A DNA stretch of 64,000 bases from a virus. Numbering within the stretch: position 1 is the stretch's first letter; the number at the start of each line of letters is the position of its first letter. The notes under the pieces are model-generated. The model was not told where the DNA came from. It searched no databases and worked only from the letters and a program-made list of their open reading frames with translations. Positions 2 through 62,489 of the stretch are shown one piece after another. Made by a program: the position numbers and the translations under genes. The DNA is taken from positions 34,722-98,721 of the IMG/VR virus record IMGVR_UViG_3300031726_000433; one strand, given 5' to 3'.

Positions 2-2329
2 TCAGGATCTACTACTGATCAGATATCTGTTCCATTTAACGCCGGTGTCGCATCTTACTTTTGTTTTGCATATGATAGAAGCTCGACAAGTCCAGTGATG
101 AGTGTGTTCACCGGAAGCATCAGCACATTCCCTGTTCTTGCATCTTCAGTTACTGGAACGATTGCCGGAGCAATTTCTGCAGGATCTGGAAAGTTATATA
201 TTGGATCAGGATCATTAATTTCCAAGGTCGTAAGACCTCTGACTGGATCTCTTGATGAATTAAGATTGTGGAAGTCAGCAAGAACAGTATCAGACATAAG
301 TTCTAGTTTCAATGCAAAGATTTATGCACAAGATAATTTGTATGCTCTGTGGAGTTTCAACGAATCGGGATCTCTTGCATCTGGCGAAAACGTTCTTGTA
401 AAAGATGTGTCTGGTCATAGGCTAAACGGATCTATACAAAACTATTTCTCAGCTCTCAGAGGATCAGGTTCAATACTTCCATATGACATAGAAGATAAGA
501 TTCTTTCCTTAAATTCTCCAGAGGTAGCTTCTTACATTTCAGAACAGCAAGCGTCTGGATCTTTATACGACAGGTATAATGACAACATTATCACGAGAAT
601 GCTACCCGAACAATTCTTTCTTCTAGAAGAGTTTAAGAATACTGAGGTGCTCAAGAATTTTCTATATGTGCTCGGAAGATACTTCGATCAGATCAAAGTG
701 TCAATAGATCAATTCATTCACGTGACTAAAACAAATTACGGAAGATTTAATCAAACTCCCGATGCTTTATTACAAGACGTAGCTAAGATGTTTGGATGGG
801 AATTTACAGGAAACTTCCTAGATGCAGATGTTGTTCAATATCTCCTGGGAAAGCAAGTTCTAACGAATACTCAGAGTAACAAGGCTCTTGATGTAAAGCT
901 TTATGAAATTAAGAATGAGTTTTGGAAAAGAACTCTTATAAATTTGATGCATCTCTATAAGACAAAGGGAACAAAGGAAAGTGTCGAATCTCTTTTGAGA
1001 ATTTATGGTCTTAATAGAAACTTTGTAAGACTTAAGGAATTCGGTTACAAACCAGATTCTGGAATAGAGACTCACAGAATAGCTGCTGAAAAAAGTGTCG
1101 CTGCATTAACATTTGGAAGTGGATCTGCGACGAGTACAAACAGAGTGTTCTCGAAGAATTTCGTCAGGTCATATGATTCAGCAATAGAAACTCGTGTGTG
1201 TTTCCCAACTCAGATAAGTTCTAATTTGACATCAAGCATCTCAACTGGATCTATCTGGACGATGATGTCATCTTCAAAACTTCATCAGTTATATTTCACG
1301 AAGTCATCGGCAACATCTCAGACAGGCAGTCTCATATACACAGGTTCAGAGGGGTCTCTCTCACTCTCGAATGTACCAATTTTTGATAATAGGTGGTGTA
1401 ATGTAACTGTCCTAAGAAGTGCTACGTCGTCATCTATTGTGATTGATGTGCGTATATTGGACGATGACGAAATCACGTATCATCAATCGGCTAGTATGAC
1501 TGCTTCTCTTGCATTTACAACACCAAACAACTCGTTTTGGTTAGGATCATCTGGAACAATGGGCAGTCAAGTATGGATGCAGGAAGCAAGAGTTTGGAAT
1601 GGAACTTTAAGTGACAGCGAAATGAATGATCATGCTTTGAATTACCAAAGCTTCGGATCTGATAACTCAAACGGTGCTTCAAATTTATTGCTACATTGGA
1701 GATTGAATGAGAATGTTTCTGCAAATTCTGGCGGTTTGCTGTACAATCAGATTTACGATTTCTCTGGACAGAATGTATCAGGATCAGGAATTGGCTTTAC
1801 AGCAAGTGTAAATCCATATAAGAAATTTCTAAATTCTTATAACTACGTCGCATCTCCAGAGTATGGGTGGAACGAAGAAAAGATTAGAAGCTTAGACACA
1901 TCGACAGTTCTTCCAGCCGATGCGTTTATAGACAATCCAATGATAGCTTTAGAGTTCAATCTTGTAGATGCTCTCAATGAAGATATCTCACAAATACTAT
2001 CAACACTAGATAATTTCAACGAGTTTATTGGTGCTCCTGTCAATAGATACAGAGACACATATCCCGATCTTGATATTCTTAGGACAAACTACTTCAAGAG
2101 ATTGAATGGGTCTATAAACTTTAGATTGTTTGCTGATCTTTTGGAATTCTTTGATAGATCATTTATCGGTATGATACGTCGACTTATTCCAGCTAGAGCA
2201 GTATTTATAGGTGATGAATTTGTTGTAGAGAGTCATATGCTTGAAAGACCAAAGGTTCAATGGAATTATAGAAGAAGAGAAAAGGAACTCGATCTTGAAG
2301 GTGTGATCAGAGTTTATATTAGATCATGA
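2..2329 (+). CDS. Baseplate wedge/tail protein with LamG-like domains, 5'-truncated by the window edge
   Basis: Frame is open from nt 2 (SGSTTDQ...) through the ORF-track start at 95. LamG-type motifs (LDELRLWKSART; QEARVWNGTLS...LLLHWRLNE) and a P2 gpI-like stretch (LLQDVAKMFGW...KTKGTKESVESLLRIYG). Confidence 0.7.
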   Translation, partial: SGSTTDQISVPFNAGVASYFCFAYDRSSTSPVMSVFTGSISTFPVLASSVTGTIAGAISAGSGKLYIGSGSLISKVVRPLTGSLDELRLWKSARTVSDISSSFNAKIYAQDNLYALWSFNESGSLASGENVLVKDVSGHRLNGSIQNYFSALRGSGSILPYDIEDKILSLNSPEVASYISEQQASGSLYDRYNDNIITRMLPEQFFLLEEFKNTEVLKNFLYVLGRYFDQIKVSIDQFIHVTKTNYGRFNQTPDALLQDVAKMFGWEFTGNFLDADVVQYLLGKQVLTNTQSNKALDVKLYEIKNEFWKRTLINLMHLYKTKGTKESVESLLRIYGLNRNFVRLKEFGYKPDSGIETHRIAAEKSVAALTFGSGSATSTNRVFSKNFVRSYDSAIETRVCFPTQISSNLTSSISTGSIWTMMSSSKLHQLYFTKSSATSQTGSLIYTGSEGSLSLSNVPIFDNRWCNVTVLRSATSSSIVIDVRILDDDEITYHQSASMTASLAFTTPNNSFWLGSSGTMGSQVWMQEARVWNGTLSDSEMNDHALNYQSFGSDNSNGASNLLLHWRLNENVSANSGGLLYNQIYDFSGQNVSGSGIGFTASVNPYKKFLNSYNYVASPEYGWNEEKIRSLDTSTVLPADAFIDNPMIALEFNLVDALNEDISQILSTLDNFNEFIGAPVNRYRDTYPDLDILRTNYFKRLNGSINFRLFADLLEFFDRSFIGMIRRLIPARAVFIGDEFVVESHMLERPKVQWNYRRREKELDLEGVIRVYIRS

Positions 2330-2340
2330 TGGAGATTTGA

Positions 2341-3375
2341 ATGTCTAGAAATAGGGTTTGGTATACAGACATGAACGTACTCGCTGTTGATGTTTCAACA
2401 GCATTCAGAGCTACATGCAGCTCGGCATGGGCATACAAAGAATTCCTAAAGGGAACAATGACTGGCTCAAATGGACCAGAGGGTCCTCCTCTATCAAGTT
2501 CATTTTGGGTTGTAGCTGGTTCTGGAGACGGTGTTACATCCGCCATGGATGGTATCGACCGCACAGGAACAGGATCATTTGATGCGTCTAAGTGGGTTAG
2601 AGGTGCTGCTCATACAAACGTACATACTTGGGTAGCATTAAGAAATCAAAGTAGTTCAATGCACGTTCTGTTGTCTATAGTTGGAGCAACTGATGCTTCA
2701 TGTATTTCAATATATGGAGCGACAACAGCCTTTACGACAACGAATACTGGATCAAATGCTCGTCCAACATCAACAACGGAATGGGTCGGGTTCGGAAGAG
2801 ATGCTGTAACTAACGGTGCACCAACTGATATAAATCAATTCACTGACGGTCTTGCAGTACCATATAGATTTCATATGTGTAGAGATGCAAATGGAGAACA
2901 TTACTTTGCCGCCAGTAAAAATAGTTCCAACATATTTCAAACATTATATATGTTTGCTAGTAGAATTAAGGCTCCAGTTTCAGATCTAGCAAAATATTCA
3001 ATTGTCTGGGCATATTCTTCAACTGGAGTTGTTGGTACTGGTGCCACGTCATTTGCTGGAAGTGCTCCAATGGGTCGTAACATAGGTAATAGTGCGCAGG
3101 AAAAGCAGGTTATTCCGTTATTCTCAGTCGGTGGCAGCGGTAACAACTCAGTTTTTAATAACTCATTCGCCACCGTCGATGCTGACGGTAAGGCTAATTT
3201 GTTTGAAGTGCCAGTGCTTGCGTTATCGTCCTTCGCGTATCGCGGTATTCTTCCAGATGTTCATGTAGTTATTCCGTATGTTACTGCCGGATTAACAATA
3301 CCAGCTACTGGAAGCGTCGAGAGGGTCGGGTTCTCTGGTTGGACAGCACCCTTTTCTGTTGCGCCATTATTGTAA
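2341..3375 (+). CDS. Hypothetical virion-associated protein
   Basis: 344-aa ORF with GGAG SD; G/S/T-rich; lies among tail genes. Confidence 0.5.
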   Translation: MSRNRVWYTDMNVLAVDVSTAFRATCSSAWAYKEFLKGTMTGSNGPEGPPLSSSFWVVAGSGDGVTSAMDGIDRTGTGSFDASKWVRGAAHTNVHTWVALRNQSSSMHVLLSIVGATDASCISIYGATTAFTTTNTGSNARPTSTTEWVGFGRDAVTNGAPTDINQFTDGLAVPYRFHMCRDANGEHYFAASKNSSNIFQTLYMFASRIKAPVSDLAKYSIVWAYSSTGVVGTGATSFAGSAPMGRNIGNSAQEKQVIPLFSVGGSGNNSVFNNSFATVDADGKANLFEVPVLALSSFAYRGILPDVHVVIPYVTAGLTIPATGSVERVGFSGWTAPFSVAPLL

Positions 3376-3932: not shown

Positions 3933-6248
3933 GTGCCTACTTCATATTCTTGGGAAATAATCTCAGCACCTCTAAGCGGATCATCTCCTGGTCCAGGCGT
4001 CTATGTTCCGCAACAAGCTATTTTTGGAACTGATCCGAGAAAGAAACAATTTGAAAGAGGAATAAAGTTTGCAAATGCTCCTGGAAATAGAGCAGACATG
4101 GTTGTTCATGGTGGACCAAGAGTCCAACATATCAACAGCTTAGATGCTGCTCATATGAACCCAATGAAATCCATTCCAAGAGATGGAACATATTCTGGGG
4201 CTATGAAGTTTAGATTTAGAAGTTATAGAAACTTTGGCGTACCTTCGAGTGTAAATAAGGTTGAGTATAGATCTAGTGATAGATATACAAACCCAATTCT
4301 AGATGGAACCGGAGTTTATCAAGCTGATCATGTGTGGTTTACAACTGGCTCAGTGACATTCTCGACTAATCAGATGGCTCATGCAAGAACAGTTGCGACA
4401 GCAAACAGACTCAACGATTCGAGGATTATTGTTATTGGTGGTAATGAATCATCAAGTTTGGGGTTTGCAACGACACCATCGGCGTCAATTTTCGCGTCAG
4501 GAACAACAGGATCTTGGACACAGATAGCGTCAATGCCAACACCAAAGCAATATCATGCAGCTGTTACGTTATCTGGTTCTGGAGATGTTGTGGTTTTCGG
4601 TGGAGTAAATGACATCGAAACTTTAACAGAGGAAGTAAGAGCATACAGATACGTAACTACTTCAGGAACATGGATAGCGACATCAGCTTCTTCGTCTATT
4701 CCTAGATTAGATTTTCAAGTAGTACAATTACAAGACGGTACTGTGTTTTTGCCAGGAGGAAGAAAAACTGGCCTCACTCCAACTGGAATAACAGTTAACG
4801 GAAGTTCAAACACAAAAGCTTATTGGAACATGGATAGTCTAGGTTATTCTTCTGATAGTGATGGCGCCACTGACATGTATTTGCTGACAGTTGGTGCTAC
4901 TGCTTCTATTGTTCCTGGGATTTTAGGAAATGCTTTGCAAACAAGTGCTAGTGGGACGATATACGCAGTTGATGCAGCTGGAAAACTTCCAGGTATACTT
5001 TCTGGAAATTGCACGGTTGAGTTTTGGATGAATATTCTCTCAAGTTCAACAGCATCTCCATATGTTCAAGATCAAGGTGTCTTTGCGTACAGTGGAATTT
5101 TTTGGGATGATACGGGATTACAAACGACGAGACCGATGTTCCACATTCAATGGTCAAACTCTACAAGAAAGTTAAGTTTCTACATGAGCCACATGACTAA
5201 TGGGGTGTGGACAACACCAACACCTGTTTACAGTGCTGGGACAGCTTCTCTTGATACATGGCAGCATATAGCAATAACAAAAGAACATACAGGCGTATCT
5301 TTAGATGGATCTGTAAAATATTCAACTATAAAAATGTACATAAATGGAGTTCTTGATTCTACACACGTATCACAAGAAATGTCTACCATCCTCGGAGTAG
5401 CTGGAGAATACGTTTTGTTCGGAACGTCTCCGTCTCCAAGTAATGGTTTTGGTAGTTTAATTAACCTAACTGCCGCAAAATTTGATGACGTTTGTATAAG
5501 TTCAATAACGAAGACGGCATCTCAGGTAAGAACAACATATTTGAATGGAATTGGATATATTGAACGCTCAGAGATTTTTAACACTGGCTCTAATACATTC
5601 TCACTTGTCAATCCATTTCCGATAGAGCCTCTTTCGCGTCAAGGTTACACAACAACACTACTTGATGATGGGACAGTACTTGTGTGTGGAGGCTTAGAAT
5701 CAGGCGTCGCAACGTCCGCTTATAGTCACGCAATGAGATACTATCCAACACAACAAAGTTGGTCTCTTGAACCATCCATGTCTCTACCAAGAACATCTCA
5801 TGAAGCTGTACTGGTTGGAGGCGAAGTATATGTCATGGGTGGACAGTCGTCAATATCTCCAACTGTAATAGAAAATTCAGCTGAGGTTTATAATCCAGTG
5901 ACAAGAACATGGAGAAGATTAGCTGACATGAATGAACGACGCGTGAGATTTACTGCTCACGGATATAATAAGGAACAGGGTTCAAGAGTTATTGTCTTTG
6001 GTGGCAGAACAACGCTAGCTGGTGCTTTAAGTAAGACTGTAGAGGTCTTTGTTCCATCCGATTCAGATCCACTTGGGAGATGGTATTACATGCCATCTCT
6101 AGACTTTGAAGTAGCATATCAACGCGGAGCGTGTCTTAATCCAGGAGACACAGGATCAGTGTTCAAGTTCTTGATTCCGGGTGGTACAATGACATTAGGA
6201 CCAACAACTCTAACAACATCGTCTCAACTCTATACAACCACAGGATGA
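3933..6248 (+). CDS. Kelch-repeat beta-propeller protein with inserted LamG domain (putative tail/receptor-binding protein)
   Basis: Repeated Kelch blades (IIVIGG, VVVFGG, VFLPGG, VLVCGG, VYVMGG, VIVFGG; W...SM..PR..H); LamG motifs TVEFW, WQHIAIT, MYINGVLD, FDDVCIS. Confidence 0.75.
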   Translation: MPTSYSWEIISAPLSGSSPGPGVYVPQQAIFGTDPRKKQFERGIKFANAPGNRADMVVHGGPRVQHINSLDAAHMNPMKSIPRDGTYSGAMKFRFRSYRNFGVPSSVNKVEYRSSDRYTNPILDGTGVYQADHVWFTTGSVTFSTNQMAHARTVATANRLNDSRIIVIGGNESSSLGFATTPSASIFASGTTGSWTQIASMPTPKQYHAAVTLSGSGDVVVFGGVNDIETLTEEVRAYRYVTTSGTWIATSASSSIPRLDFQVVQLQDGTVFLPGGRKTGLTPTGITVNGSSNTKAYWNMDSLGYSSDSDGATDMYLLTVGATASIVPGILGNALQTSASGTIYAVDAAGKLPGILSGNCTVEFWMNILSSSTASPYVQDQGVFAYSGIFWDDTGLQTTRPMFHIQWSNSTRKLSFYMSHMTNGVWTTPTPVYSAGTASLDTWQHIAITKEHTGVSLDGSVKYSTIKMYINGVLDSTHVSQEMSTILGVAGEYVLFGTSPSPSNGFGSLINLTAAKFDDVCISSITKTASQVRTTYLNGIGYIERSEIFNTGSNTFSLVNPFPIEPLSRQGYTTTLLDDGTVLVCGGLESGVATSAYSHAMRYYPTQQSWSLEPSMSLPRTSHEAVLVGGEVYVMGGQSSISPTVIENSAEVYNPVTRTWRRLADMNERRVRFTAHGYNKEQGSRVIVFGGRTTLAGALSKTVEVFVPSDSDPLGRWYYMPSLDFEVAYQRGACLNPGDTGSVFKFLIPGGTMTLGPTTLTTSSQLYTTTG

Positions 6249-6263: not shown

Positions 6264-9200
6264 ATGGCTGATGACTTCGGCGTATACAACATAACTGGTA
6301 AACTTGAACCAACTGTGAGTGCTTCACTTAGTACAGCTCTGCAAGTTTCCGGAAATTTGAACATTAAGAGAAGACCAACAAGAATAACGAGAGACTACAA
6401 CGAAGTTCAGACTGCGAGATCATCTTCTACAAAGCTAATGAACACTTTCGTGATCCCAGAGATTTCATCATCTCACTATGAATCGACATCATTAAATGCT
6501 TATCTAAGTGGAACGCAGAAACTAGAGAGTACAGCTGTTCCAGCGTCTGGAGCGTTCTACTACTCAAAGCAGAATAAACTTGTCAAGTACACGTTTGCAG
6601 TTACTGCCTCAAGTCAACTGGCGACTTCTATAGGTACTCAAGACACAAGTCCTGCGACAGATGAATATGCTGCCAGAGCTACTTACCTTGCGCTTTCTGG
6701 AACATATATCAACTCAGACATGTTTACCCCAGCAGTTATAAATTTCACAGTTCCAAATCATGGAAAGATCAGAGACATTAAGGTGTGGTTGGAATTTATC
6801 AACGATCATCGCGGCGGCCCAGGTCAAACATACACAGGTAGCCCATTCAAGGCTGGGGGCGCTGGAGATTCTGTAAACAACATGCAACAGGGACTACAAG
6901 GAGTTCAGGTAGCGCTGAGAAGTCCGAATGTTTCATTTGAAAATGCTCATCCTTTATGGAACGATCCAACAGTGAGGAATTTTCAAAAGTGGCCGACTGG
7001 TACAGATAGAGTAAGTTCTCAATTTACATATGTTCCAGAACTCTTGAAGAATTCTTATCCATTATGGGCGGGACATAAATGTGAAGATGATCTTGGAGAT
7101 GTTCTTGGATATCATACAGGATCAGTTTCTGCATCTTTCTCTATAAGAAGAATAAACAGTTCTTCATTTGGTCCTGGTATATTAGGAACAGAATTTGCAG
7201 ATCAAACGATTCTGAATGCTTATCCACACGATTTAGTAATGTCTGCATTTAGAACGATAGATGTCATATCTACGCAAAGAACATTGAATGACGTGAATGA
7301 TCAAACTTCTCTGTACTCACCAGGTGCATCAGTATTATATCTCACAACGACAGGAACATTGAACACAGCTGGTGCTTCTTACACAAACATAGATGGGAAT
7401 GGCAACTTAAATAATTCATACACTGGATATTACGTGATGAGTAGTTCACTACCACAGTCTGGAACAATTCAAGTAATGATGAATTATAACGACAATGGCA
7501 CGTACACGAATGCAAATGTTTCTCAATTCGCATCAGGATCATTACAGTTTTTTTCTAGTTCTTTGTCTTTTAACTTTAACGGCATGACGAGCGGAAAATA
7601 TGTATATAGAGCTCCCTTCTCTATGCATAGTCCAAGAATAAGACAACAAAGAAATTCACAATACTTACATGCAATTTGTTGTGATTACTCGTATGGTATA
7701 GTTTACGGAATAAGAATAGCTGGTTCGAATAATTATTCTCCGTGGAGATTAAAGTCTCCGATAATTTCATATAACGGTGGACAAGCATTCGCATCTCCAT
7801 GGGGACCAAATCAAGAAATTCTACCTGGTCCATTTGTAGATTTTGCTCTTGATTCAAGAGGTAAACCACATTTCATATTTAGTTCTGTAAATCTTAATAC
7901 AATTACATCTCAACTCGAATATGCTTTTTTCTCTGGATCGACAGCTGTTTACGAATCAACTCCTCCAAATTCACTTCCAGTTACTAATACAAGCGACACA
8001 ATATATCCAAAACATTATGAATATTACACAGGATCAATACCAGGATTCACAAACGCGTCCTCATTCTATTGGCCTGATTTCATGGTCGGTGTGCTAGATA
8101 ATCCACAATTGAATCCTATCAAGGATAGTAAGAATCCTCAATCGTCAGCCGGACCATATTGTAGAATTGAAATTGATACAAGTGATATGATTCATGTCGT
8201 TTACGCCGATGTCATCAATAAATCTGTCAAATATGCGAAGAAACAAGTTGCATATACACAATGGTCTGGATCATGGGACTTTAATCTAGTTTTTAAACAC
8301 TCTGGTTCATCTGTATTTCCAACGTACATTTCTCTAGACATAGATAAAAATAATAAACCACATATTGCTTATGCTTTATCTGATGTGTCGGCTAATAGCA
8401 GCAGCATTTACTACGCTAAGTCAGGATCATCAGGATGGGAGACCAATCTTGTATCTTCAACACGCGGTGTTAAATTCGGAACAAACATAAAACTTGATAA
8501 CGATGATAACCCTGTGATAATTACGACTGCACAAAATTTTGATGGAAATAACAAATCAGCTCTTTTAATGTTCACATCCAATTCAAGTGGTTGGGATTTC
8601 ATAACACTCAATATGTCAAGCAGTAATGATCCAAGGACTACTTCGCTGATGTTCGACAGGAATAATAAGAAAAGAATTTACACGGGTGGAGAGGACTTGA
8701 CAGCGATATGGGAACTTTCATCTTCTCAAGATGCAACTCATACGTCATATGACACAGATATTGACATGAGAACTATTTTTACTGATAGCTCGAAGAATCT
8801 TAATCCAAGGAATCTCTCTTCGTTATATGACAGCTTGTCTGATATATCTCCTGGAGATTCAAAACGACCTTATCTTAGATTCTTTGATGGAAGAGCTTAC
8901 CCAAGTCCCTTTTCTGCATCATTGCCAATCCTTCAAGCTTTTGGTGTATGGGGATTAGTTTCAGCATCTCACTTGTTTGATCCACCAAAAGGTCAATCAA
9001 CTGCTCTCTCTGGAGCAAATATTCCATGGATGTTAGATCCTAGAATCCCACCAGGAATATTTCACGGTTTAAATTATCAACCAACGACAACATCTTCAAT
9101 CGGTTGGTCTCCTCCTACAGGCTGGCTAACTGGACCTGGAGGAACTGCAAATGTAAATGAGTTCCCAACGACTGGTTCAAATCTTGGTCCAGTTGACTTA

Positions 9201-9977: not shown

Positions 9978-10009
9978 GATTTCTAATTAATAGATTGTCA
10001 AAAGACTTA

Positions 10010-10020
10010 CTATTTAGAAG
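10010..10020 (+). promoter_or_regulatory. Putative late promoter (TANTTA motif)
   Basis: CTATTTAGAAG immediately before the GGAGG SD. Confidence 0.55.
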
Positions 10021-10034
10021 TGGAGGTTCTCTGA

Positions 10035-13600: not shown

Positions 13601-14050
13601 AAGAATGCTTTTACTGGAACACACCAGTTTCAAGACACTTCAATATCATTTGGAAATACGTACTTCTATAGAATAAGAGCTGTGGGAGTAGATGGAACGT
13701 TATCTGCATGGGTTTACAGAGGAATGAAAGTTGCTGAGCAACATACCGATAAGATGATAAGAGATATGTTGACACCAGATATCAAGAAGAGTTTGTCTGA
13801 TAACAAGATTCCTATGATTGTTCCTGGAATTGGCGGAAGAAGCAGAGCTGAAACGAGTCTATCATTGCAACCTCAGTTCTCTAAGCCAGCAGACATTGCA
13901 CAGGTTAGAGTTGGTGTACCTCCTCCAGTTCAGTTAACTGTACAAAATCCATCTACTCTAGCTACTTATAATTTACAGACAGTGTCTGTGAAGCCAACTG
14001 TACCGAGTTCAACAACAGTAAGAGCTCAGCTTCTAGGTCTAGGAAAGTAA
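10691..14050 (+). CDS. Large virion protein with multiple fibronectin type III-like domains
   Basis: Repeated F.D..(V/I)..G..Y.Y.(V/I)..VD..GN.S motifs (e.g. FYDRDTITGRKYMYRVYSVDVFGNKSES) and P.NL...L.W starts. Confidence 0.65.
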   Translation: MPLFFDRSSPGTSVNIDSDVAKRSNTTFTSARKFSAPNSEEQETKGSQVISNDEHLIEQAATLKGVAIAAEQIALVARGNLATVRDQINSTQSSQQQDSRSIAPAVMQSDVANTSDANSKNLFDYLQTRVPLLETSAIADDLHKNITETVFKNKTDVPAPSAFNQNVPQLVSITVDMAKNRGTVDCFFSHLRFNLPLSQVWNKNVKAVRIFRSTILNPTLKRGTMPVLTMRGMERLSTLKSRSRAKGGDQLGPMEIRYREAGVMTATSILNPIDPATNARISTNMYDGVIGSKDSSTTPASDTQSTQTDISSFLDASRFSGIDAGVAQNLNVLRNIKMQDPSSAHLDIPQQFTLNTAEARQKGLLNTGQVTSLASDITSQIVIDKNNTSEFREIAFMSLDKLKSTITGDVVEYDFVDESVGFGRGYSYYIVSIDHNMMESIRSQIVDVTIEGIRVPERPKRVFSYKVNNAIALNILVDDQLVEKFEIHKREADSSLIKDNSLIVRNFSDVKGFNVNASIVKRSSNMFIKAGECLNGSKGSGATFYDRDTITGRKYMYRVYSVDVFGNKSESPYEVEMFLQDSSRPNELIKPTLSAEMDAKTGKSRIVFKCTDKRVRMLFLARRDLTVGQSAFTTPSQVNMIKFGTPKSGEGSKHFEDIVLRGENKDYSWTGMFQNSLEETTFIDKTVSLDHIYQYSIYGVDVFGNETSHEISKPFMIIRRPMINAPVNLTAEVTQGPGFTVGGVRLEWQDGDNDTSSEDRLGNRASLADSSVRTLYQIERRKVGDERWEEFPMIENRILFDPAPSVGIPGKKRTFIDEPGVNRPKFRPTYIETNQTYVYRVKAVQTGSYVSNYSNYAEVFAALKISEPKNFRVRASDVKVKPFYIVLNWDTSNDSGVVDKWEIERADVNNFAAARLNLKNPSDFQTLNFKTFRTVFRESSRFRSQGMDETLVVSNQKAKVFNQTNLQSIDKNAFTGTHQFQDTSISFGNTYFYRIRAVGVDGTLSAWVYRGMKVAEQHTDKMIRDMLTPDIKKSLSDNKIPMIVPGIGGRSRAETSLSLQPQFSKPADIAQVRVGVPPPVQLTVQNPSTLATYNLQTVSVKPTVPSSTTVRAQLLGLGK

Positions 14051-14052
14051 AA

Positions 14053-21364: not shown

Positions 21365-21381
21365 GTTTATATCGAGAATAC

Positions 21382-53237: not shown

Positions 53238-53633
53238 ATGCCAGCAATAGGCGACGCAATGGTAGCTCTTCCGCTATCTTCATCATTCAACGATCCTTGG
53301 GTTCACCAAAGAACAGTTATGCACACGAGAACCGCGACTGTGACTGTTATAACTGGATCAACCTCAAGTCAGTTAGCTCTTCCAGCTAATGCAAGTCGTC
53401 TCGGATATATTTTAGTAAATGATTCTCCAAGTCTTGTATATATGAAGTATGGATCTGGGCCAGCAAATTCAAACGCATTCTCAGTTATTCTTCCGCCGAT
53501 TGATCTTGCAGCAACTGCGTGGAAGTCTGCAATAGAACATGAGAACGTTGGTGTGGGTGTGTTCACGGGACAAATTCATGTTGTATGGTCGAGCGGTTCA
53601 ACTGGAAGTTTGAGGATCACGGAATTCACATAA
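53238..53633 (+). CDS. Small beta-rich virion protein (paralog of 54546..54917)
   Basis: ANASRLGYILVNDS..LVYMKYG...FSVIL...FTGQIHVVW...GSLRITEFT. Confidence 0.55.
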   Translation: MPAIGDAMVALPLSSSFNDPWVHQRTVMHTRTATVTVITGSTSSQLALPANASRLGYILVNDSPSLVYMKYGSGPANSNAFSVILPPIDLAATAWKSAIEHENVGVGVFTGQIHVVWSSGSTGSLRITEFT

Positions 53634-53634
53634 T

Positions 53635-53949
53635 ATGTCATGGTTTCCAGATAGCATAGTTGGATATCCTGTAAGTGGCTCAGAGCTAGGATTAATTGTA
53701 CGTCCTATTGGAGCCGGAGTTAACGGAGCTGTTCCTGTTCAACTTGCGGGATCATCTGGAAGTGGATCACTTCAGGTATCTGGATCAGTTAGTGTTTCTA
53801 ATCTATCTGACATTAGAGATGTAAATGTCGGGTATCTACTTGGAAGCATACTTATGGAGTTGAGGTATGTTAACTTTCATCTTTCAAAGATGACTGGGAT
53901 AGAAGATGTAGAAAGTGAAATAGATGCAGAAGAAGATTCCGAGGAATAA
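53635..53949 (+). CDS. Small hypothetical protein
   Basis: SGS-rich centre, LLGSILMELRYVNFHLSKMTG helix, acidic tail. Confidence 0.5.
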   Translation: MSWFPDSIVGYPVSGSELGLIVRPIGAGVNGAVPVQLAGSSGSGSLQVSGSVSVSNLSDIRDVNVGYLLGSILMELRYVNFHLSKMTGIEDVESEIDAEEDSEE

Positions 53950-53951
53950 AA

Positions 53952-54536
53952 ATGATTATTAAAGATCCATACACAGGTTTAGCTGCAAGAGTTGAAGAAG
54001 GTGGAAAACTCTTGACTGAATCTACAACAGAGTCTGAATTTCATGCTATATCCGAAGAAGGCGGAGGATATTCAGTAGGCCTTTATCAAACAGCTAATGC
54101 TTTTGTTGTTCCTCCAACTAGCGGATCTGCACTAATTTTTCTAAAAAACACGAGTGATAGTCAAGATATCATCTTAGAAAAGATCATGGTGTCTTCAAAT
54201 TCATCTCAACCAATAAGATTTGACGTAGAAGTTGGAAACACAATTGGTACAATTAGCAACGGTGCGGCTGTCGTACCAATCAACAACTCGACGCAACACT
54301 CTAATCAACCACCCGTTACATGCTACATTTGGGATGGCGTCAGTTCGATGAGTGGCATAAACGCAAATGGTGATAAGGTTTACAATTTTTATGCCGGTCC
54401 TGGACTTACACAATGCTCAACTGAATCTTCTAGATTCATAGGACCAAATAGCTCGTTTGTTATAAACGTGTATGGAGATGATGTGACGAAGATAACATTC
54501 TTTATATCATTTTATATGGAAGACATTTCGGAGTGA
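53952..54536 (+). CDS. Hypothetical beta-rich protein
   Basis: 194-aa ORF with GAGG SD inside the cassette. Confidence 0.5.
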   Translation: MIIKDPYTGLAARVEEGGKLLTESTTESEFHAISEEGGGYSVGLYQTANAFVVPPTSGSALIFLKNTSDSQDIILEKIMVSSNSSQPIRFDVEVGNTIGTISNGAAVVPINNSTQHSNQPPVTCYIWDGVSSMSGINANGDKVYNFYAGPGLTQCSTESSRFIGPNSSFVINVYGDDVTKITFFISFYMEDISE

Positions 54537-54545
54537 TAGAAAAGG

Positions 54546-54917
54546 ATGCCACTAGACATCCACATAATAGATCCAGGAACTGGAAATACAGCCAAGGTTA
54601 CAGATGGAGCCGTTCATGTAACTGGATCTGTAGTAACAGAGACGTGTCCCACATATGGATCATCAAGCTTAGCATATGCAACTTCTTCAAGTATTGCTCT
54701 TTTAGCTGCGAAAACAAGAGCTGGATTTTCTATTTATAATCATTCAATGGGTGTTTTGTATATCAAAATGGGAACAACAGTTTCGACTTCTTCATTTTCA
54801 GTAGCACTAGTTCCAAATGCATTCTATGAGTCTCAGAATGCATACTCAGGACAGGTATCTGGAATTTGGGAACCACCTTTGACAGGGAGCGCTCAGGTAA
54901 CTGAGTTTACTTGCTAA
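54546..54917 (+). CDS. Small beta-rich virion protein (paralog of 53238..53633)
   Basis: AKTRAGFSIYNHS..VLYIKMG...FSVAL...YSGQVSGIW...GSAQVTEFT. Confidence 0.55.
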   Translation: MPLDIHIIDPGTGNTAKVTDGAVHVTGSVVTETCPTYGSSSLAYATSSSIALLAAKTRAGFSIYNHSMGVLYIKMGTTVSTSSFSVALVPNAFYESQNAYSGQVSGIWEPPLTGSAQVTEFTC

Positions 54918-57900
54918 TGCCATTATACTCTCCTGGACAACAGATTTCAATAAACCTTTCACAGACAGTGAATGGTGTAGCTTCTATTTCTGCAGGAACT
55001 GGTGGAGTAACAGGTCCCGCTGTTTCATTTGCAGATTCAAATGGTGTTTCGTTCGGAATAGTTACTGACTCGAATGGAGGAACCATCACTGCTTCCGCAG
55101 CTGGAGGAATAGGTGGATCTGGAAATAAGATTGCGGCAGGCACACAGACTGCTAATGGAACTGCCACTGTAGTATTCTCGAATAGCAACGGTTTGACGTT
55201 TGGTATGTCGAATCAGTCTGTCATTACAGCCTCATATACTCAGTCAACTCATTCACACTCGACAGCTCCAGCGGCCATCGGAGCAGGAACGACAAGAGGT
55301 ACGGCTGGAACGATTTCATTCTCAAATAGTAATAACATCACGTTTGGAATGAATGGAAATACAATTACGGCATCTGCTTCATATTCTCAATCAACCGCAC
55401 CAGGTGCTTTAGCTGCAGCTGGTTCAACGTTAACGAATGGAACGGCTGTATTTTCTAACTCTAACAATATAAGTTTCGGTCTAAATGGAAGCACGATCAC
55501 GGCTTCTGCTTCATACAGTCAATCTACGTCTCCTGGAGCAATAGCGGCAGGCACACAGACTGGAACATCTGGGACTGTGGTGTTCGCTGACTCAAATGGA
55601 ATAGCATTTGGTATGTCTGGTTCTAGCCAGATAACAGCTTCATACACTCAATCTACTCACTCACACTCAACAGCTCCAGCTGCAGTATCTGCAGGAACAA
55701 CATTGGCTACAAGTGGAACGATTTCATTTGCCGATGGAAACAATGTTTCATTTGGAATGGATGCTGGAACAATTACAGCTTCTGCATCATATAGTCAATC
55801 AACCCATTCACATTCTACAGCTCCAGGAGCTATAGCTGCAGGAACGCAGACTGCAACTTCTGGAACTATAGTCTTCGCAGATTCAAATGGGTTATCGTTT
55901 GGACTATCTGGTTCAAGTCAGATAACAGCATCTTACACTCAGTCTACACACTCTCATTCTACGGCTCCTGGAGCAATCGCAGCCGGAACAACGAATGCTA
56001 CGAGTGGGACAGTATCATTTGCAAATTCAAACGGTCTTGCGTTTGGCATGAATGCTGGAACGATAACTGGTTCTTACACTGTCCCAACACAGTCAGTACA
56101 GTCATACAATGTAAATGCGGCTGGTACACAGACCGCTAATACTACTGGAACTGTAGTGTTTAGTAATTCAAACAATATATCGTTTGGAATGACTAACAAT
56201 TCTATAATAACAGCGTCTGCTTCTTACTCACAGTCAACTGCGCCGGGTGGATTGGCTGCAGGAACTCAAACGGCAACGTCTGGTACAGTGGTGTTCGTCA
56301 ACTCAAATGATTTTACATTTGGTATGACGAACAGTTCTCAGATCACGGCTTCATTTTCTCAGTCAACACACTCACATTCGACAGCCCCTGCCGCTATAGC
56401 TGCTGGTGGGTCAACTGCGACGAATGGTACTATCGTTCTTTCTAACTCGAACAATGTATCATTTGGATTCAACGGTTCAACTATAACAGCGTCAGCTTCG
56501 TATAGTCAGTCTACATCACCGGCTGGCTTCGCAGTAAATGCATCCACTGAGACAAACGGAACAATCGTCTTCACGAATAGCAACAATGTTTCGTTCGGAT
56601 TCAATGGATCAACTGTCACTGCCTCTGCTTCATTCCCTGCTCAGACTGCTCAATCAGCTATCAGAGGTCTTGGCGTAAGCAACACTGGAACCACAGCTGG
56701 AAACACTGGAGTGTCGACCGGAGTCGATTGGGTAATTGCCGGCAGTGGTAACATTACAGCATCGCAGTCGACAGCTGCAGGTGGTCCGAACACAATCTGG
56801 TTGTCAGTACCAGCAGCTGGAGCATTTGGTGGAGTGGCAGCAGGTGGTTCCACTGAGACGAATGGCACAGTTGTATTCTCGAACTCAAATAACGTTAGCT
56901 TCGGATTCAATGGTTCTACGATAACAGCGACAGCTTCTTACTCTCAGTCTACTGCTCCAGCAGCAATTGCAGCAGCTGGTTCTACAACCACGAATGGAAC
57001 TGTCGTATTCTCGAACTCGAATAACGTTTCATTCGGAATGAATGGAAGCGTTATAACAGCAACTGTAACGATGACTCCAGGAGCCGGAGACGGATTCAAT
57101 AATATCGCAGCAGGTACTCAGACGGCAGGAACTTCTGGAACAGTTGCATTTTTGAATTCTAATAATGTGACATTTGGCATGACTAACAGCTCTCAAGTCA
57201 CAGCTTCATTCTCTTATAGTCAATCAACGGCTCCATCTGGTATCGCTGCATCAAATGCTTCTACCGTAACTAACGGTGTCGTCCAGTTCGCGAATGGAAA
57301 TAACGTAACATTCGGACTGAACGGTTCTACTATCACTGCTTCAGCTTCATACAGTCAATCTACACAACCAACGATCAAGGGTCTTGGTGCTTCCAATACT
57401 GGAAACACAGCTGGAAATACTGGAACATTCACTGGTGTAGACTGGGCTATAGCAGGATCTGGCGGAATTACAGCTTCTGGTTCTACCACGAACGCAACAG
57501 GTCCTCATACTCTATGGTTGTCAGTTCCAACAGGAGCTTCTGCGACAGGAAATCTTGGCGGAGTTGCTGGATCTGGAGCATCAACTGTAACGGGCGGGAC
57601 TGTTCAATTTGGAAATGCAAATGGTGTGTCATTCGGTCTAAACGGATCGACGATGACTGCTTCTTATACTCAGTCTACATCTCCTTCTGGCATTGCAGCA
57701 TCAAATGCTTCCACTGTCACGAATGGCACTGTACAATTCGCAAATGGAAATAACATAACATTCGGATTGAATGGAAGCACGATTACAGCATCGGCCTCTT
57801 ACTCACAGTCAACTGCACCAGGCGGATTTGCAGTCAACGCTTCCACAGAGACAAATGGCACGATCGTCTTCACCAACTCTAATAACGTAAGCTTCGGATT

Positions 57901-60900
57901 TAACGGTTCGACGGTGACGGCTTCAGCATCATTTGCTCAAACTAATCAATCTGCAATTAAGGGATTCGGTATTTCTAATACAGGAACAACTGCTGGAACA
58001 TCTGGCATGTTTACTGGTGTAGATTGGGTCCTTGCAGCTTCTGGAAACATTACGGCTTCTGGCTCTACAACGAATGCTACTGGTCCTCATACTCTATGGT
58101 TGTCAGTACCTGCACAATCAACTGTACCAGCTGCAGTTGCTGTAAACGGTTCAACTGTAACAAACGGAACTGTCGTATTCTCCAATAGCAACGGTGTTTC
58201 ATTCGGAATGAATGGATCTACTATCACCGTTACAGTTACTCCAGGTGCCGCTGCTGGAATCGCAGCTCAAGCAGCAGGAACTCAAACTGCAACGTCTGGA
58301 ACTGTAGTTTTTGCTAACTCTAACAACTTCACATTCGGGATGAGTGGAAGTTCTCAGATTACAGCATCATTCTCTGAATCTACTCACGGTCATACTTTCA
58401 ATCAGCTTGCAGCAGGTACTCAGACAGCTGCAAATGGAAGTACGGTTGTATTTTCAAATAGTAATAACTTTACATTCGGAATGACAAATAGCAGCATCAT
58501 TACTGCTTCATTCTCAGAATCTACTCACGGACACACGTTTAATCAATTGGCGGCTGGTACACAGACTGGCGCTAATTCAAGTACCGTAGTCTTCTCGAAC
58601 AGTAACAATGTAACGTTCGGCATGACAAATAGTTCTATTATTACAGCGTCCTTCTCATACACACAGTCTACTTCTCCAGCAGCACTTGCAGTTAATGCCG
58701 CAGGGTCTATAACTGGTGGTACAGCGGTCTTCTCAAACTCTAACAACGTGACGTTCGGTCTGAACGGTTCTACTGTAACTGCCTCAGCTTCATTTGCTGC
58801 CCAGACAACACAATCTGCAATCAAGGGTTTAGGTGTTTCAAATACAGGTACAACAGCTGGTAACACTGGAGTCTTTACTGGCGTAGACTGGGCAATCGCA
58901 GCGTCAGGAAATATCACAGCATCTGGTTCTACCACCAACGCGACTGGTCCTCACACACTCTGGCTTTCAGTTCCAGCTCAATCAACTGTTCCAGCTGGCT
59001 TTGCAGTTAACGCTTCGACCGAGACAAATGGAACCATTGTCTTTACAAATAGTAACAACGTTTCATTCGGTTTCAATGGATCTACCGTAACAGCTTCAGC
59101 TACATTCGCCCAAACAGCTCAGTCTGCGATTAGAGGTCTTGGAGTTTCTAACACTGGAAACACAGCTGGAAACACTGGTGTTTCAACAGGAATAGATTGG
59201 GTTATTGCTGGTTCGAATAACATAACTGTCTCACAGTCGACAGCTGTAGGTGGTCCGAATACGATTTGGATCAACCAGACTGGAGGCGGAGGCGCTGGCG
59301 ACGGGTACAATATTCTTGCAGCTGGTACTCAGACAGCAAATACGACAGGAACAGTTGTCTTTGTAAATAGTAATAACTTCACGTTCGGAATGTCTAATAA
59401 CTCTCAGATCACAGCTTCATTCTCTGAGTCAACGCACGGACATACATTCAACCAGGTCGCTGCAGGAACTCAAACTGGTGCAAATGGAAGTACTGTAGTC
59501 TTCTCGAACTCCAACAACGTGTCCTTTGGAATGACGAACAGCTCTATTGTTACTGCTTCGTTCTCATACACACAGTCTACGTCACCAGCTGGTATCGCAG
59601 GTTCTGGCGCATCGACCGTAACAAATGGAACAATTCAGTTTGCAAATTTGAACGGCATCTCGTTTGGACTAAATGGTAGTACCATGACAGCTTCTGTATT
59701 TCCACATGCTCATGCGGCAGGTGGAGTTACATTTACTGGTACTTCTGGTACAGTTGTATTCTCGAACTCAAATAACGTTTCATTCGGATTGGGCGGTGCT
59801 GGTAGCACCATAATGACAGCTTCTGCTTCGTTTGCTCAGACGACGCAGTCTGCAATTAGAGGTCTAGGTGTTTCTAATACTGGAACGACTGCTGGTAACA
59901 CTGGTATATCAACAGGTGTAGATTGGGTAATTGCAGGATCTGGAAATATTACAGCCTCACAATCTACCGCTGTTGGTGGACCAAATACAATTTGGTTGTC
60001 CGTCCCAACTGGCGGTGGTGGAGGTGCTGCAATTTCAGCCGCTGGTGGTTCTCAATCTACTGGAACTGTTATATTTTCTAACTCAAACGGTATATCGTTT
60101 GGATACAACGCTGGAACGATAACTGCTACAGTAACTCCAGGTGCCGCTGCTGGAATCGCCGCTATGGGTGCTGGAACACAGACAGTGACATCTGGAACAA
60201 TAATATTCGCTGACTCAAATGGAATTGCATTCGGTCTATCTGGCTCAAGTCAGATAACGGCATCATACAATGATGTAGATTTTAACTTTGCAGTTCCAGG
60301 AACAACTCTTGCGTCAAATGCTGGCGGCTCAATTGTATTCTCAAACTCAAACGGTGTTTCTTTCGGAATAAACGGTTCAACGATAACTGCGTCTGTAAAC
60401 GGATTCACGGCGTCAACTGCTCAAAATAGACAATTGGGAGCATCAACCACAATCGCCCCAGGACAAAGCAGTTTGTGGTTATCTCCAATTAGACTTCCAA
60501 ATCCTCTATCTGCTTCAACGATGATGATCATTCAGAGCTTTTCTGGCACAATAACATCTGCTGCAACTGCACAATTTGGACAGAGTTTGTTGATGGCTCT
60601 CTATTCTCAGAATGCAACCAATACTTCTAGATTCGATACATACTGGACTGGAGCAAAGAGCATGACGTTCTGGAACAGCGGAACTTCAAGTTACTCTTAT
60701 AGCTACGATACTTTTAGCAGTTCTAGCGCAGGAAGCAACATCGGAACTGCAAGCATCATGGGATTGAGAATGCACAACTTCACAATAGGATCAATAATTC
60801 CAGCTGGTTTGTATCTGGCTGCGTTTCTTCCAATAACATCTTCTGCTGGATATTCTGCTGCAATGTCAAGAGCTGTTATGGTATACGACGCACCAATTCC

Positions 60901-61063
60901 TCTTGGAATGGGAACGATAGGACAGGCAACGAACAATACGGTTGGATATGTTGATGGAGGAGTACTCAGCGCACAGACAGGGGCGTTACCAGCTTCTATA
61001 GCACTTGGCGACATTCGTCAGACATCAAACATAATGCCATACTTTAAGATTGGAGCAATTTAA
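54917..61063 (+). CDS. Giant (2048-aa) Ser/Thr/Gly/Ala/Asn-rich repeat protein, putative long fibre/appendage
   Basis: ATG overlaps the upstream TAA. By hand count about 32 type-A repeats (GT.VF.NSN..[ST]FG....[IV]TAS), 6 type-B repeats (I[RK]G.G.SNTG.TAG..G..TG.DW) and 9 HxH motifs, then a non-repetitive C-terminal domain. Confidence 0.7.
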   Translation: MPLYSPGQQISINLSQTVNGVASISAGTGGVTGPAVSFADSNGVSFGIVTDSNGGTITASAAGGIGGSGNKIAAGTQTANGTATVVFSNSNGLTFGMSNQSVITASYTQSTHSHSTAPAAIGAGTTRGTAGTISFSNSNNITFGMNGNTITASASYSQSTAPGALAAAGSTLTNGTAVFSNSNNISFGLNGSTITASASYSQSTSPGAIAAGTQTGTSGTVVFADSNGIAFGMSGSSQITASYTQSTHSHSTAPAAVSAGTTLATSGTISFADGNNVSFGMDAGTITASASYSQSTHSHSTAPGAIAAGTQTATSGTIVFADSNGLSFGLSGSSQITASYTQSTHSHSTAPGAIAAGTTNATSGTVSFANSNGLAFGMNAGTITGSYTVPTQSVQSYNVNAAGTQTANTTGTVVFSNSNNISFGMTNNSIITASASYSQSTAPGGLAAGTQTATSGTVVFVNSNDFTFGMTNSSQITASFSQSTHSHSTAPAAIAAGGSTATNGTIVLSNSNNVSFGFNGSTITASASYSQSTSPAGFAVNASTETNGTIVFTNSNNVSFGFNGSTVTASASFPAQTAQSAIRGLGVSNTGTTAGNTGVSTGVDWVIAGSGNITASQSTAAGGPNTIWLSVPAAGAFGGVAAGGSTETNGTVVFSNSNNVSFGFNGSTITATASYSQSTAPAAIAAAGSTTTNGTVVFSNSNNVSFGMNGSVITATVTMTPGAGDGFNNIAAGTQTAGTSGTVAFLNSNNVTFGMTNSSQVTASFSYSQSTAPSGIAASNASTVTNGVVQFANGNNVTFGLNGSTITASASYSQSTQPTIKGLGASNTGNTAGNTGTFTGVDWAIAGSGGITASGSTTNATGPHTLWLSVPTGASATGNLGGVAGSGASTVTGGTVQFGNANGVSFGLNGSTMTASYTQSTSPSGIAASNASTVTNGTVQFANGNNITFGLNGSTITASASYSQSTAPGGFAVNASTETNGTIVFTNSNNVSFGFNGSTVTASASFAQTNQSAIKGFGISNTGTTAGTSGMFTGVDWVLAASGNITASGSTTNATGPHTLWLSVPAQSTVPAAVAVNGSTVTNGTVVFSNSNGVSFGMNGSTITVTVTPGAAAGIAAQAAGTQTATSGTVVFANSNNFTFGMSGSSQITASFSESTHGHTFNQLAAGTQTAANGSTVVFSNSNNFTFGMTNSSIITASFSESTHGHTFNQLAAGTQTGANSSTVVFSNSNNVTFGMTNSSIITASFSYTQSTSPAALAVNAAGSITGGTAVFSNSNNVTFGLNGSTVTASASFAAQTTQSAIKGLGVSNTGTTAGNTGVFTGVDWAIAASGNITASGSTTNATGPHTLWLSVPAQSTVPAGFAVNASTETNGTIVFTNSNNVSFGFNGSTVTASATFAQTAQSAIRGLGVSNTGNTAGNTGVSTGIDWVIAGSNNITVSQSTAVGGPNTIWINQTGGGGAGDGYNILAAGTQTANTTGTVVFVNSNNFTFGMSNNSQITASFSESTHGHTFNQVAAGTQTGANGSTVVFSNSNNVSFGMTNSSIVTASFSYTQSTSPAGIAGSGASTVTNGTIQFANLNGISFGLNGSTMTASVFPHAHAAGGVTFTGTSGTVVFSNSNNVSFGLGGAGSTIMTASASFAQTTQSAIRGLGVSNTGTTAGNTGISTGVDWVIAGSGNITASQSTAVGGPNTIWLSVPTGGGGGAAISAAGGSQSTGTVIFSNSNGISFGYNAGTITATVTPGAAAGIAAMGAGTQTVTSGTIIFADSNGIAFGLSGSSQITASYNDVDFNFAVPGTTLASNAGGSIVFSNSNGVSFGINGSTITASVNGFTASTAQNRQLGASTTIAPGQSSLWLSPIRLPNPLSASTMMIIQSFSGTITSAATAQFGQSLLMALYSQNATNTSRFDTYWTGAKSMTFWNSGTSSYSYSYDTFSSSSAGSNIGTASIMGLRMHNFTIGSIIPAGLYLAAFLPITSSAGYSAAMSRAVMVYDAPIPLGMGTIGQATNNTVGYVDGGVLSAQTGALPASIALGDIRQTSNIMPYFKIGAI
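55020..60400 (+). repeat. Degenerate intragenic tandem repeats (~120-150 nt units)
   Basis: Protein repeats are highly similar while synonymous positions differ between copies. Confidence 0.8.
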
Positions 61064-61844: not shown

Positions 61845-61853
61845 GAGGAAAAT

Positions 61854-62489
61854 ATGGCAAAGAAAAAGAAGGTATCACCAGCGGTTGTTCCAGCAGCTCC
61901 AGTTCTTGCAAAACCAACGACACTTGTGAAGCTAGATCTCGCAGCAGGACAAAGACCGAGAGAAGGATTTGAAGGAGTCGATATCTGGCCTCAGTCAAAG
62001 CATGTTGTAGATTTGACCAAGTTCCCATGGCCATTTGAAGATAACTCAGTTGAGGAACTTCATTGTTCTCATTACGTAGAACATATCCCAGCAAGAGAGA
62101 TTGAAGCGAGAGATCTTGCTGATCCAAAGAGAACTGATCTTCTTGGCAAGGATCATCTTTTCGCATTCTTCGATGAGTGCTTTAGAATCTTGAAGCCAGG
62201 TGGAGATATGAGAGTGATTGTGCCAGCTCTAAGAAATAACAGAGCGTTTCAGGATCCAACTCATAGAAGATTCCTACCAGCTGAGACCTTCCTCTATTTG
62301 AACGCCGAGTGGAGAAAGATGAATATGCTTGATCACTATCGAGCTGATTGTAATTTCGGTGTGAATATCAATCCAACTGTTCCTGTCGAAATTAATCTTC
62401 TAAATCCAGAAACTGCCAATGTAAGGATGAACAATTACTGGAATGTCATCATTGACTGGGATGCGACATTGAAGTCATTAAAGACTTAG
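61854..62489 (+). CDS. Class I SAM-dependent methyltransferase (Methyltransf_11-like)
   Basis: KLDLAAG (motif I variant), GVDI, DLTKFPWPFEDNSV, SHYVEH, ECFRILKPGG, DPTH. Confidence 0.85.
   Translation: MAKKKKVSPAVVPAAPVLAKPTTLVKLDLAAGQRPREGFEGVDIWPQSKHVVDLTKFPWPFEDNSVEELHCSHYVEHIPAREIEARDLADPKRTDLLGKDHLFAFFDECFRILKPGGDMRVIVPALRNNRAFQDPTHRRFLPAETFLYLNAEWRKMNMLDHYRADCNFGVNINPTVPVEINLLNPETANVRMNNYWNVIIDWDATLKSLKT

Follow-up and report, generated by a model that had tools for sequence, protein, structure and literature searches.

A surface-confined [S/T]-G-S tripeptide in the virion proteins of an aquatic T4-like phage clade, a possible serine O-glycosylation sequon

The GtfA/GtfB pair (PDB 4PQG, 5E9T), cytoplasmic GT-B proteins of which one is a GT4 enzyme, is an O-GlcNAc transferase that acts on Ser in S-A-S and S-V-S repeats of serine-rich-repeat adhesins. 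We know of no short dispersed sequon described for the virion glycosylation of mycobacteriophages. In those phages (Che8, Rita and their relatives), phage glycosyltransferases (GTs) glycosylate capsid and tail proteins, according to Freeman et al. 2023 (Cell Host Microbe 31:1216) as cited in PMC11256854 and PMC12801897. TibC, a cytoplasmic GT9 enzyme with ADP-heptose as donor, hyper-glycosylates Ser and not Thr at N-S-G-G/T-S-A-A in short loops of its beta-rich substrate (PMC4358343), and chloroviruses decorate their capsid with methylated sugars through a host-independent, soluble, virus-encoded GT machinery (PMC5408694, PMC9614988). Here, we analyse 64 kb of IMG/VR virus record IMGVR_UViG_3300031726_000433 (hereafter the window, positions 34722-98721 of the 98.7-kb viral contig G000:C1, of which it forms the last part), report an ordered tripeptide, [S/T]-G-S, that is strongly over-represented on the outer virion proteins encoded there, and describe a glycosylation island upstream of the window that may serve it.

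We scanned the proteins of the genome for all 8000 tripeptides, leaving out a low-complexity open reading frame (ORF) of 2050 amino acids (aa). Shuffles of whole proteins and of 10-, 20- and 40-residue blocks served as controls. TGS ranked first (44 against 12.0 expected, z 9.2) and SGS second (49 against 16.5, z 8.0). A first-order dipeptide model predicts only 23 SGS and 20 TGS, leaving the excess unexplained by dipeptides. In the pooled structural set, [ST]GS occurs 84 times against 20.2 expected from whole-protein shuffles (z 14.6) and 23.7 from 10-residue local shuffles (z 13.4). The block-shuffle control gives 40 against 21.9 for [ST]AS (z 3.9) and only a marginal z of 2.6 for [ST]SS.

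The excess depends on residue identity and order. Position 1 takes S or T only, no other residue exceeding 1.3x; at position 2, G (3-3.7x) is favoured above A (1.8-2x); and position 3 takes S only. The permuted orders GSS, SSG, GST, TSG, GTS, AGS and GGS stay at 0.8-1.5x. N and D, which are usual in turns, show no enrichment at positions 1 or 3, and the specificity is chemical rather than geometric. A first-pass annotation of the window, made by a model from the sequence alone, had proposed [S/T]-[G/A/S]-S as a virion-wide motif and as the candidate acceptor site of a phage-encoded modification system. The excess over composition-shuffled controls is large, with z up to 9.9 for a single protein, and its G (about 4x) and, more weakly, A (2.2x) forms stand, but Ser in the middle (z 2.6) does not. 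The core motif is [S/T]-G-S (about 4x) with a weaker variant [S/T]-A-S (about 2x), and SSS and TSS are to be dropped.

Several trivial origins were considered and rejected. Many sites are encoded as GGA-TCN and hence contain GATC, but GATC occurs 362 times against 365 expected and hexamers are at expectation; codon use in the motif equals the background, and both the TCN and AGY families of Ser codons are used. Selection is on amino acids, not DNA. Composition or local Ser/Gly-rich patches do not account for the excess, which survives whole-protein shuffles, 10-40-residue shuffles and the permuted-order controls. Nor does a common inserted domain: only three weak paralogous pairs were found among the window proteins, and the motif carriers are mostly unrelated in sequence. 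The motif is not a general trait of phage structural proteins either, as phage T4 has 7 [ST]GS against 11.7 expected, an observed-to-expected ratio (O/E) of 0.6.

All long ORFs of the window lie on the + strand. They include a T4-type particle module with a large terminase, a gp20-like portal, an S77 prohead protease, a gp23-like capsid protein, a gp13-like neck protein, sheath and gp19 tube, along with several LamG/Kelch fibre proteins at the 5' end and a primase. The motif excess is restricted to outer virion proteins among these (Table 1). The richest carrier is the first ORF, a LamG-containing fibre cut by the window edge (full gene G000:C1 34126-37050, 974 aa), with 12 [ST]GS against 1.2 expected (z 9.9) and 20 [ST][GAS]S against 4.7. 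The hand counts of the first-pass annotation proved accurate: its estimate of about 11 [ST]GS in a 744-aa first ORF is exactly 11 (the twelfth lies in the 775-aa open frame), and the seven it gave for the 630-aa LamG fibre (21382-23274) are seven against 1.4 expected. The Kelch/LamG protein holds 17 [ST][GAS]S against 5.7 (z 5.1) and 6 [ST]GS against 2.0, and the two partly paralogous fibres hold 9 [ST][GAS]S against 3.0 and 16 against 4.8.

Further along the module, three of the four small cassette proteins are strongly enriched in [ST][GAS]S (5 against 1.1, 4 against 0.9 and 6 against 1.4), and those starting at 53238 and 54546 are paralogs. The capsid protein has 8 motif sites against 2.5 expected, and, as had been noticed at first reading, these cluster in its variable central insertion, with 7 of the 8 at residues 161-232. 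The neck, sheath and capsid strings quoted then are all present, and a recount of [ST]GS in SbcCD, primase and terminase again gave zero. As a virion-wide description the motif fits fibres, neck, sheath, capsid and cassette, but it fails for the portal and tube, which are unenriched, as well as for the giant fibre and three large proteins with about 10% Ser. These last three, which lie in the same tail module, are an internal negative control.

Table 1. Features of the window, with motif counts given as observed vs expected
Feature	Position	Strand	Basis and counts
LamG-containing fibre, most motif-rich	2..2329	+	C-terminal 775 aa of 974-aa protein; Laminin_G_3
Kelch/LamG fibre or baseplate-periphery protein, enriched	3933..6248	+	Kelch and Laminin_G_3 domains
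1237-aa fibre-like protein, enriched	6264..9977	+	[ST]GS 11 vs 2.6 (z 5.4)
Three large Ser-rich (~10% Ser) tail-module proteins, unenriched	10691..18812	+	[ST][GAS]S 2, 0, 1 vs 4.1, 3.1, 2.8
Two partly paralogous fibres (324 aa; 630 aa with LamG), enriched	20390..23274	+	Laminin_G_3 E 5e-19
Major capsid protein, gp23-like	40957..42636	+	phrog_138, E 2e-75
Neck / head-tail adaptor, gp13-like, enriched	44130..45275	+	phrog_211; [ST]GS 5 vs 0.3 (z 8.2)
577-aa tail-associated protein, moderately enriched	47011..48744	+	[ST]GS 5 vs 1.6; weak tail/hydrolase PHROG matches
Tail sheath, enriched	50872..53163	+	phrog_23, E 4.5e-66; [ST][GAS]S 9 vs 2.4
Four small cassette proteins, between sheath and giant fibre	53238..54917	+	three strongly enriched
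2050-aa giant fibre, S/T/G/A/N-rich, unenriched	54911..61063	+	[ST]GS 8 vs 13.2
Candidate GT-A glycosyltransferase P0001	61101..61844	+	phrog_12406 glycosyltransferase, E 2.5e-5
Candidate SAM-dependent methyltransferase P0002	61854..62489	+	phrog_6636, E 8.8e-8; sub-threshold Methyltransf_11

A megablast search of the window against cultured phages returned no match. The closest cultured phage is Microcystis phage Mel-JY01 (sheath identity 37%), followed by the uncultured 484-kb phage LR756508, the Flavobacterium immuto phages and Rhodothermus phage RM378, and uncultured relatives with sheath identities of 49-76% are frequent in IMG/VR. Near-complete members of the clade measure 185-205 kb, and the contig is therefore about half a genome. 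Two near-complete relatives, G006 and G007 (91-96% complete), repeat the pattern. For the structural orthologs of G000, G006 and G007, the [ST]GS O/E is 4.11, 4.07 and 4.59 and the [ST]AS O/E 2.24, 2.24 and 2.27, against 1.12, 1.00 and 1.01 for [ST]GS in their other proteins, bearing out the earlier contrast between virion and non-virion proteins. TGS ranks first and SGS fourth among the tripeptides of G007, and TGS ranks sixth in G006. In these two genomes, the significantly enriched proteins are all orthologs of fibre, sheath, capsid or cassette proteins of the window, or else further fibres; the first-ORF fibre has 14 [ST]GS against 2.1 in G006 and 7 against 1.3 in G007, and the 1237-aa protein 13 against 2.8 and 5 against 1.2.

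Motif density is conserved across the clade while individual sites turn over. Ortholog trios at 28-65% identity contain 104 motif columns, 20 of them common to all three genomes, 24 to two and 60 unique, and the motif counts per protein stay similar despite this turnover. Fibres share 17-33% of their motif columns among three genomes, against 3-5% for background tripeptides, and the capsid protein shares none of 11. In the sheath, four motif columns are kept in most of 19 homologs and other sites turn over in variable regions. Neck sites are conserved across 11 homologs, with S121-x-S123 alternating between SGS, TGS and SAS, a G/A exchange. Sites show mild short-range clustering, with gaps of 4 and 6-7 residues. 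Their flanks are beta-like, with hydrophobic residues enriched at -1/+1, charged residues depleted and an alternating downstream pattern. Weak AlphaFold models would place the sheath sites in hairpin loops, at strand ends, in strand interiors and at one helix N-cap.

The 34 kb upstream of the window hold glycan genes, not replication genes (G000:C1 ~400-30000; loci L031 and L032). Within them lies a glycosylation island of about 20 kb (G000:C1 ~7.3-26.5 kb), with the fibre genes directly after it. In order, the genes encode a PD-(D/E)XK nuclease, a 442-aa GT4 protein that we call GT4(a) (7309-8637), an NDP-sugar epimerase/dehydratase and a 1096-aa triple GT (9597-12887), which is a fusion of GT4(b), GT9 and GT2. 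There follow another GT4, a DUF2334 protein, two Glyco_trans_1_2 proteins, a GT9 and two more epimerases/dehydratases, and then a UDP-sugar dehydrogenase and a nucleotidyltransferase adjoining a PfkB kinase; methyltransferases number four or five. The island carries at least seven GT domains (GT4, GT9, GT2, Glyco_trans_1_2), and at least seven ORFs upstream of the window have such a domain. Its GT9 domains (PF01075) score E 1.7e-10 in a 299-aa protein at 17692-18591 and E 2.6e-11 inside the triple GT. The PfkB kinase and CTP_transf_like nucleotidyltransferase resemble HldA/HldC sugar activation, although GmhA and GmhB were not found alongside them. No island protein has a predicted transmembrane segment, and a flippase, polymerase and ligase are absent from the island. 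A free-standing EndoVII-type nuclease gene also lies inside it (G000:C1 21391-21888).

The same series of genes, at 38-78% identity, recurs in at least five contigs, among them G006, G007 and a 204-kb contig on which sheath locus L021 also lies. Flavobacterium phage vB_FspM_immuto (immuto below; host Flavobacterium sp. LMO8) has a positionally homologous island of 11 kb, likewise after a PD-(D/E)XK nuclease, with GT4(a), GT4(b) and an epimerase in common. Among 50,697 phage records, GT4(a) was found only in Mel-JY01, LR756508, the immuto phages and RM378, and GT4(b) only in Mel-JY01 and immuto, where it adjoins GT4(a). The pair is missing from RM378 and LR756508, which have GT4(a) only, and from T4, which has neither.

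This distribution can be compared with that of the motif. The motif O/E is 4.1-4.6 in the window clade, 2.8 in immuto (sheath 7 against 1.3; one 373-aa protein 12 against 1.3) and 1.5 in Mel-JY01 (sheath 4 against 0.9; neck 2 against 0.3), and there is no clear excess in RM378 (5 against 3.5) or LR756508 (7 against 5.6). In a sample of about six lineages, of which three have low expected counts, the motif excess goes with the presence of the GT4 pair and is larger where the island is larger. Two other candidates for the tracking enzyme were rejected: immuto has the motif but no GT9, and GT4(a) alone is present in RM378 and LR756508, where a clear excess is lacking.

We compared this arrangement with the described systems. 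As in the mycobacteriophages, where in the accounts cited above the phage-encoded GTs are proposed or shown to act in the host cytoplasm and to give the particle a glycan shield, GT genes are carried by the phage itself. Those phages are siphoviruses of Actinobacteria with two to few GT genes, whereas here a clade of T4-like myoviruses has an island of about 20 kb and an ordered tripeptide, possibly modified, spread over many unrelated outer proteins. With the bacterial autotransporter heptosyltransferases (BAHTs; TibC/TibA, Aah/AIDA-I) the island has in common its two GT9 domains and possibly, through the HldA/HldC-like pair, the means of activating a sugar, but its GT9 proteins are 299 aa long or part of the triple GT, against about 406 aa for TibC (PMC4358343), and stand nearer to WaaF; no iron-finger or beta-barrel module turned up, although no test aimed at them was made; immuto has the motif without GT9, and the register is [ST]-G-S rather than S-G-G. 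The adjacent GT4-type gene pair that tracks an S/T-G/A-S motif recalls GtfA/GtfB. However, there is no significant sequence similarity (GtfA structures 4PQG and 5E9T score E 0.19-0.38 with GT4(b) and are not retrieved with GT4(a)), and the acceptors would here be folded virion proteins whose sites are dispersed, rather than long low-complexity repeats. The chloroviruses share a soluble, virus-encoded machinery, and among solved structures GT4(a) matches chlorovirus B736L best (PDB 3OY2, E 4e-8), over the nucleotide-binding half only. In these viruses of eukaryotes, however, a single major capsid protein bears the glycans, which are N-linked at atypical sites.

We propose that [S/T]-G-S, and more weakly [S/T]-A-S, may be a selected recognition motif on exposed virion proteins, namely fibres, neck, outer domains of the sheath, the capsid insertion and small tail-decoration proteins. 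It would be the acceptor site for cytoplasmic O-glycosylation of Ser by the soluble enzymes of the upstream island, with the adjacent GT4 pair initiating the Ser modification. A recognition motif is preferred over a fold element because of the strict hydroxyl-small-Ser specificity, the restriction to exposed proteins, the turnover of sites with density kept and the location of the island by the fibre genes. The acceptor-site idea of the first-pass annotation is retained in part: a surface motif is under selection in unrelated outer proteins and a glycosylation island lies upstream, but the enzyme it named is not supported. That [S/T]-G-S is a Ser O-glycosylation sequon served by the island is our leading reading, though a tentative one, a little short of an even call. 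More tentative again is the wider proposal that in this widespread aquatic T4-like clade (~185-205 kb) all exposed proteins of the virion are covered by an O-linked, partly methylated glycan built by the island, with the GT4 pair reading [S/T]-[G/A]-S.

A number of observations weigh against the sequon proposal. Modification of the motif, its glycan nature and its initiation by the GT4 pair are all three read from sequence, and the few lineages behind the GT4-pair association, about six with three of low expected counts, are confounded with phylogeny. Non-virion proteins of G000, G006 and G007 show no avoidance of the motif (O/E 1.0-1.1); at an O/E of 1.0, a simple tripeptide-reading cytoplasmic enzyme would therefore hit other proteins too. 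The two AlphaFold models are of low confidence (pLDDT 49.5 and 57.2). The best solved match of GT9 is the lipopolysaccharide enzyme WaaF (1PSW, E 1.3e-3), and TibC was not retrieved. DNA glycosylation is possible as well, the core GTs adjoining a nuclease. G007 and G006 encode a divergent ThyA-family protein (G007:C1 124678-125358, E 1e-31; G006:C1 47411-48025, E 8e-23), which may act as thymidylate synthase or as pyrimidine hydroxymethylase and bears on DNA glycosylation by part of the island. GT islands in large aquatic phages are also usually interpreted as serving host-envelope or DNA modification (PMC12801897).

The first-pass annotation had assigned the motif to two enzymes of the tail operon, a candidate GT-A GT (P0001) and a candidate S-adenosylmethionine (SAM)-dependent methyltransferase (P0002). 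Both identifications are plausible from their matches, and the genes lie among structural genes beside motif-rich small proteins. P0001 matches no Pfam family at E<0.01, and PDB searches with either protein found no solved homolog. The nearest ESM Atlas clusters of P0001 are viral (score 0.98), some with GT2 or Anp1 in 14-71% of members, and by pattern only it has VVIIPTRG near residue 35 and a DxD-like EDD, in LEDDN, near residue 100, as a small GT-A enzyme might. The pair occurs at five loci, with the methyltransferase always next to P0001 and both always immediately after the gene for a giant-fibre homolog rich in S, T, G and A (also L017, L024, L025, L026). These linked fibres are motif-poor, with 27 [ST]GS against 38.1 pooled (O/E 0.71). 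Relatives that lack P0001 have, in this place after the sheath, fibres rich in the motif (114 against 23.5). The motif O/E is only 0.6-0.8 in the distant GT-bearing loci L024 and L025, so the expected co-occurrence of motif excess with the tail enzymes across relatives breaks down. G006 and G007 have no P0001 homolog, even by tblastn at E<1, and both have the full excess. In L010 and L005 the tube follows directly after the sheath, and neck and sheath are still enriched. P0001 is also absent from four relatives whose contigs are only 14-34% complete, an absence not used alone.

P0001 is unlikely to be the motif enzyme, because its linked fibres are motif-poor, L024 and L025 are unenriched, and G006 and G007 are enriched without it. 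The motif as sequon of the tail-operon enzymes is thus largely refuted as a general explanation, and we give it hardly any weight. The pair is best read as a separate accessory module private to the giant fibre, which is the likely substrate of the adjacent GT-A. The giant fibre is itself nearly uncharged (D+E+K+R ~1%), has N-x-S/T 80 times against 55.8 expected, and strongly repeats the tripeptides FGM, ITA, QST and HSH. Very large uncharged fibres of relatives downstream of the sheath (G007:C1 91557-95765, 38 against 7.3; L019 14211-22652, 43 against 10.3) are the opposite of the window's own motif-poor giant fibre.

A different account leaves the motif unmodified. It would be a structural or physicochemical element, a favoured short connection or a solvent-facing strand segment on Ser-rich beta-sandwich surfaces, selected for folding, solubility, hydration or weak glycan or receptor contacts, and the island would modify DNA or the host envelope. 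The beta-like flanks with hydrophobic -1/+1 residues, depleted charges and an alternating downstream pattern are what this account expects, as are the many positionally conserved sheath and neck sites and an over-representation of even-numbered short gaps between sites. It is also consistent with the lack of avoidance in cytoplasmic proteins, with GT4(a) occurring without excess in RM378 and LR756508, and with GT islands being common in large aquatic phages. Turn-type motifs, however, normally tolerate N, D and T, and here S/T-G/A-S alone is enriched. No excess is seen in the T4 homolog of the sheath or in other structural proteins of T4 (7 against 11.7), the three Ser-rich large proteins of the same module are unenriched, sites appear in several secondary-structure contexts in the models, and positions turn over heavily while density is maintained. 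On balance we judge an unmodified motif unlikely, though far from negligible.

A distinctly less probable alternative is a different modification or a host enzyme, such as Ser phosphorylation, acylation or glycosylation by a cytoplasmic transferase of the host. Residue specificity and surface restriction would fit equally, and the motif is found in phages of hosts from different phyla. That same spread, over phages of Cyanobacteria and Bacteroidota, argues against any single host enzyme; the annotated parts of the genome yielded no kinase or other modifier candidate, and the conserved phage-borne glycan island is the obvious candidate.

The window has other notable features. A single 1059-aa fusion protein (24775-27954) combines an SbcD-like phosphoesterase with an SbcC/Rad50-like ATPase. 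The 574-aa protein at 45275-46999, which is not motif-enriched, looks like a lineage-specific fusion: its N-terminal ~165 aa are homologous to a stand-alone neck/tail protein of 165-190 aa present in all relatives, and its C-terminal ~400 aa match the C-terminal part of the tail-sheath family phrog_15433. A candidate trypsin-like serine protease lies in the tail module (49077-49916), with GGSGGG near its C-terminus and an N-terminal signal/lipobox-like LLVSC, and has homologs at the same position in L017, L022, L010 and L015. Free-standing nuclease genes of NUMOD3 type (31686-32291) and EndoVII type (42735-43259) lie, respectively, between terminase and portal and after the capsid gene; like the one inside the island, both interrupt conserved blocks. 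A gene for ribosomal protein bS21 was noted at first reading at 39459-39686, a position corresponding to the bS21 annotated in the Mel-JY01 record (22183-22410, L027), between protease and capsid gene.

The question can be tested directly, since the GT4 pair and the motif excess occur together in two cultured phages, immuto and Mel-JY01. If the motif is unmodified, the most over-represented ordered tripeptide of this genome, confined to the virion surface, still needs a structural explanation. If [S/T]-G-S is an O-glycosylation sequon, it would be the first short linear one described in a virus of bacteria, would allow exposed, glycosylated proteins to be predicted from sequence only, and would serve as a simple sequence tag by which to recognise exposed proteins of virions and, in metagenomes, glycosylated phages. 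Virion glycosylation would then be a core genome-encoded trait of a large environmental group of T4-like phages with hosts of several phyla, not peculiar to a few mycobacteriophages, and effects of such a coat would be expected on adsorption, on the stability of the particle, and on grazing and recognition.

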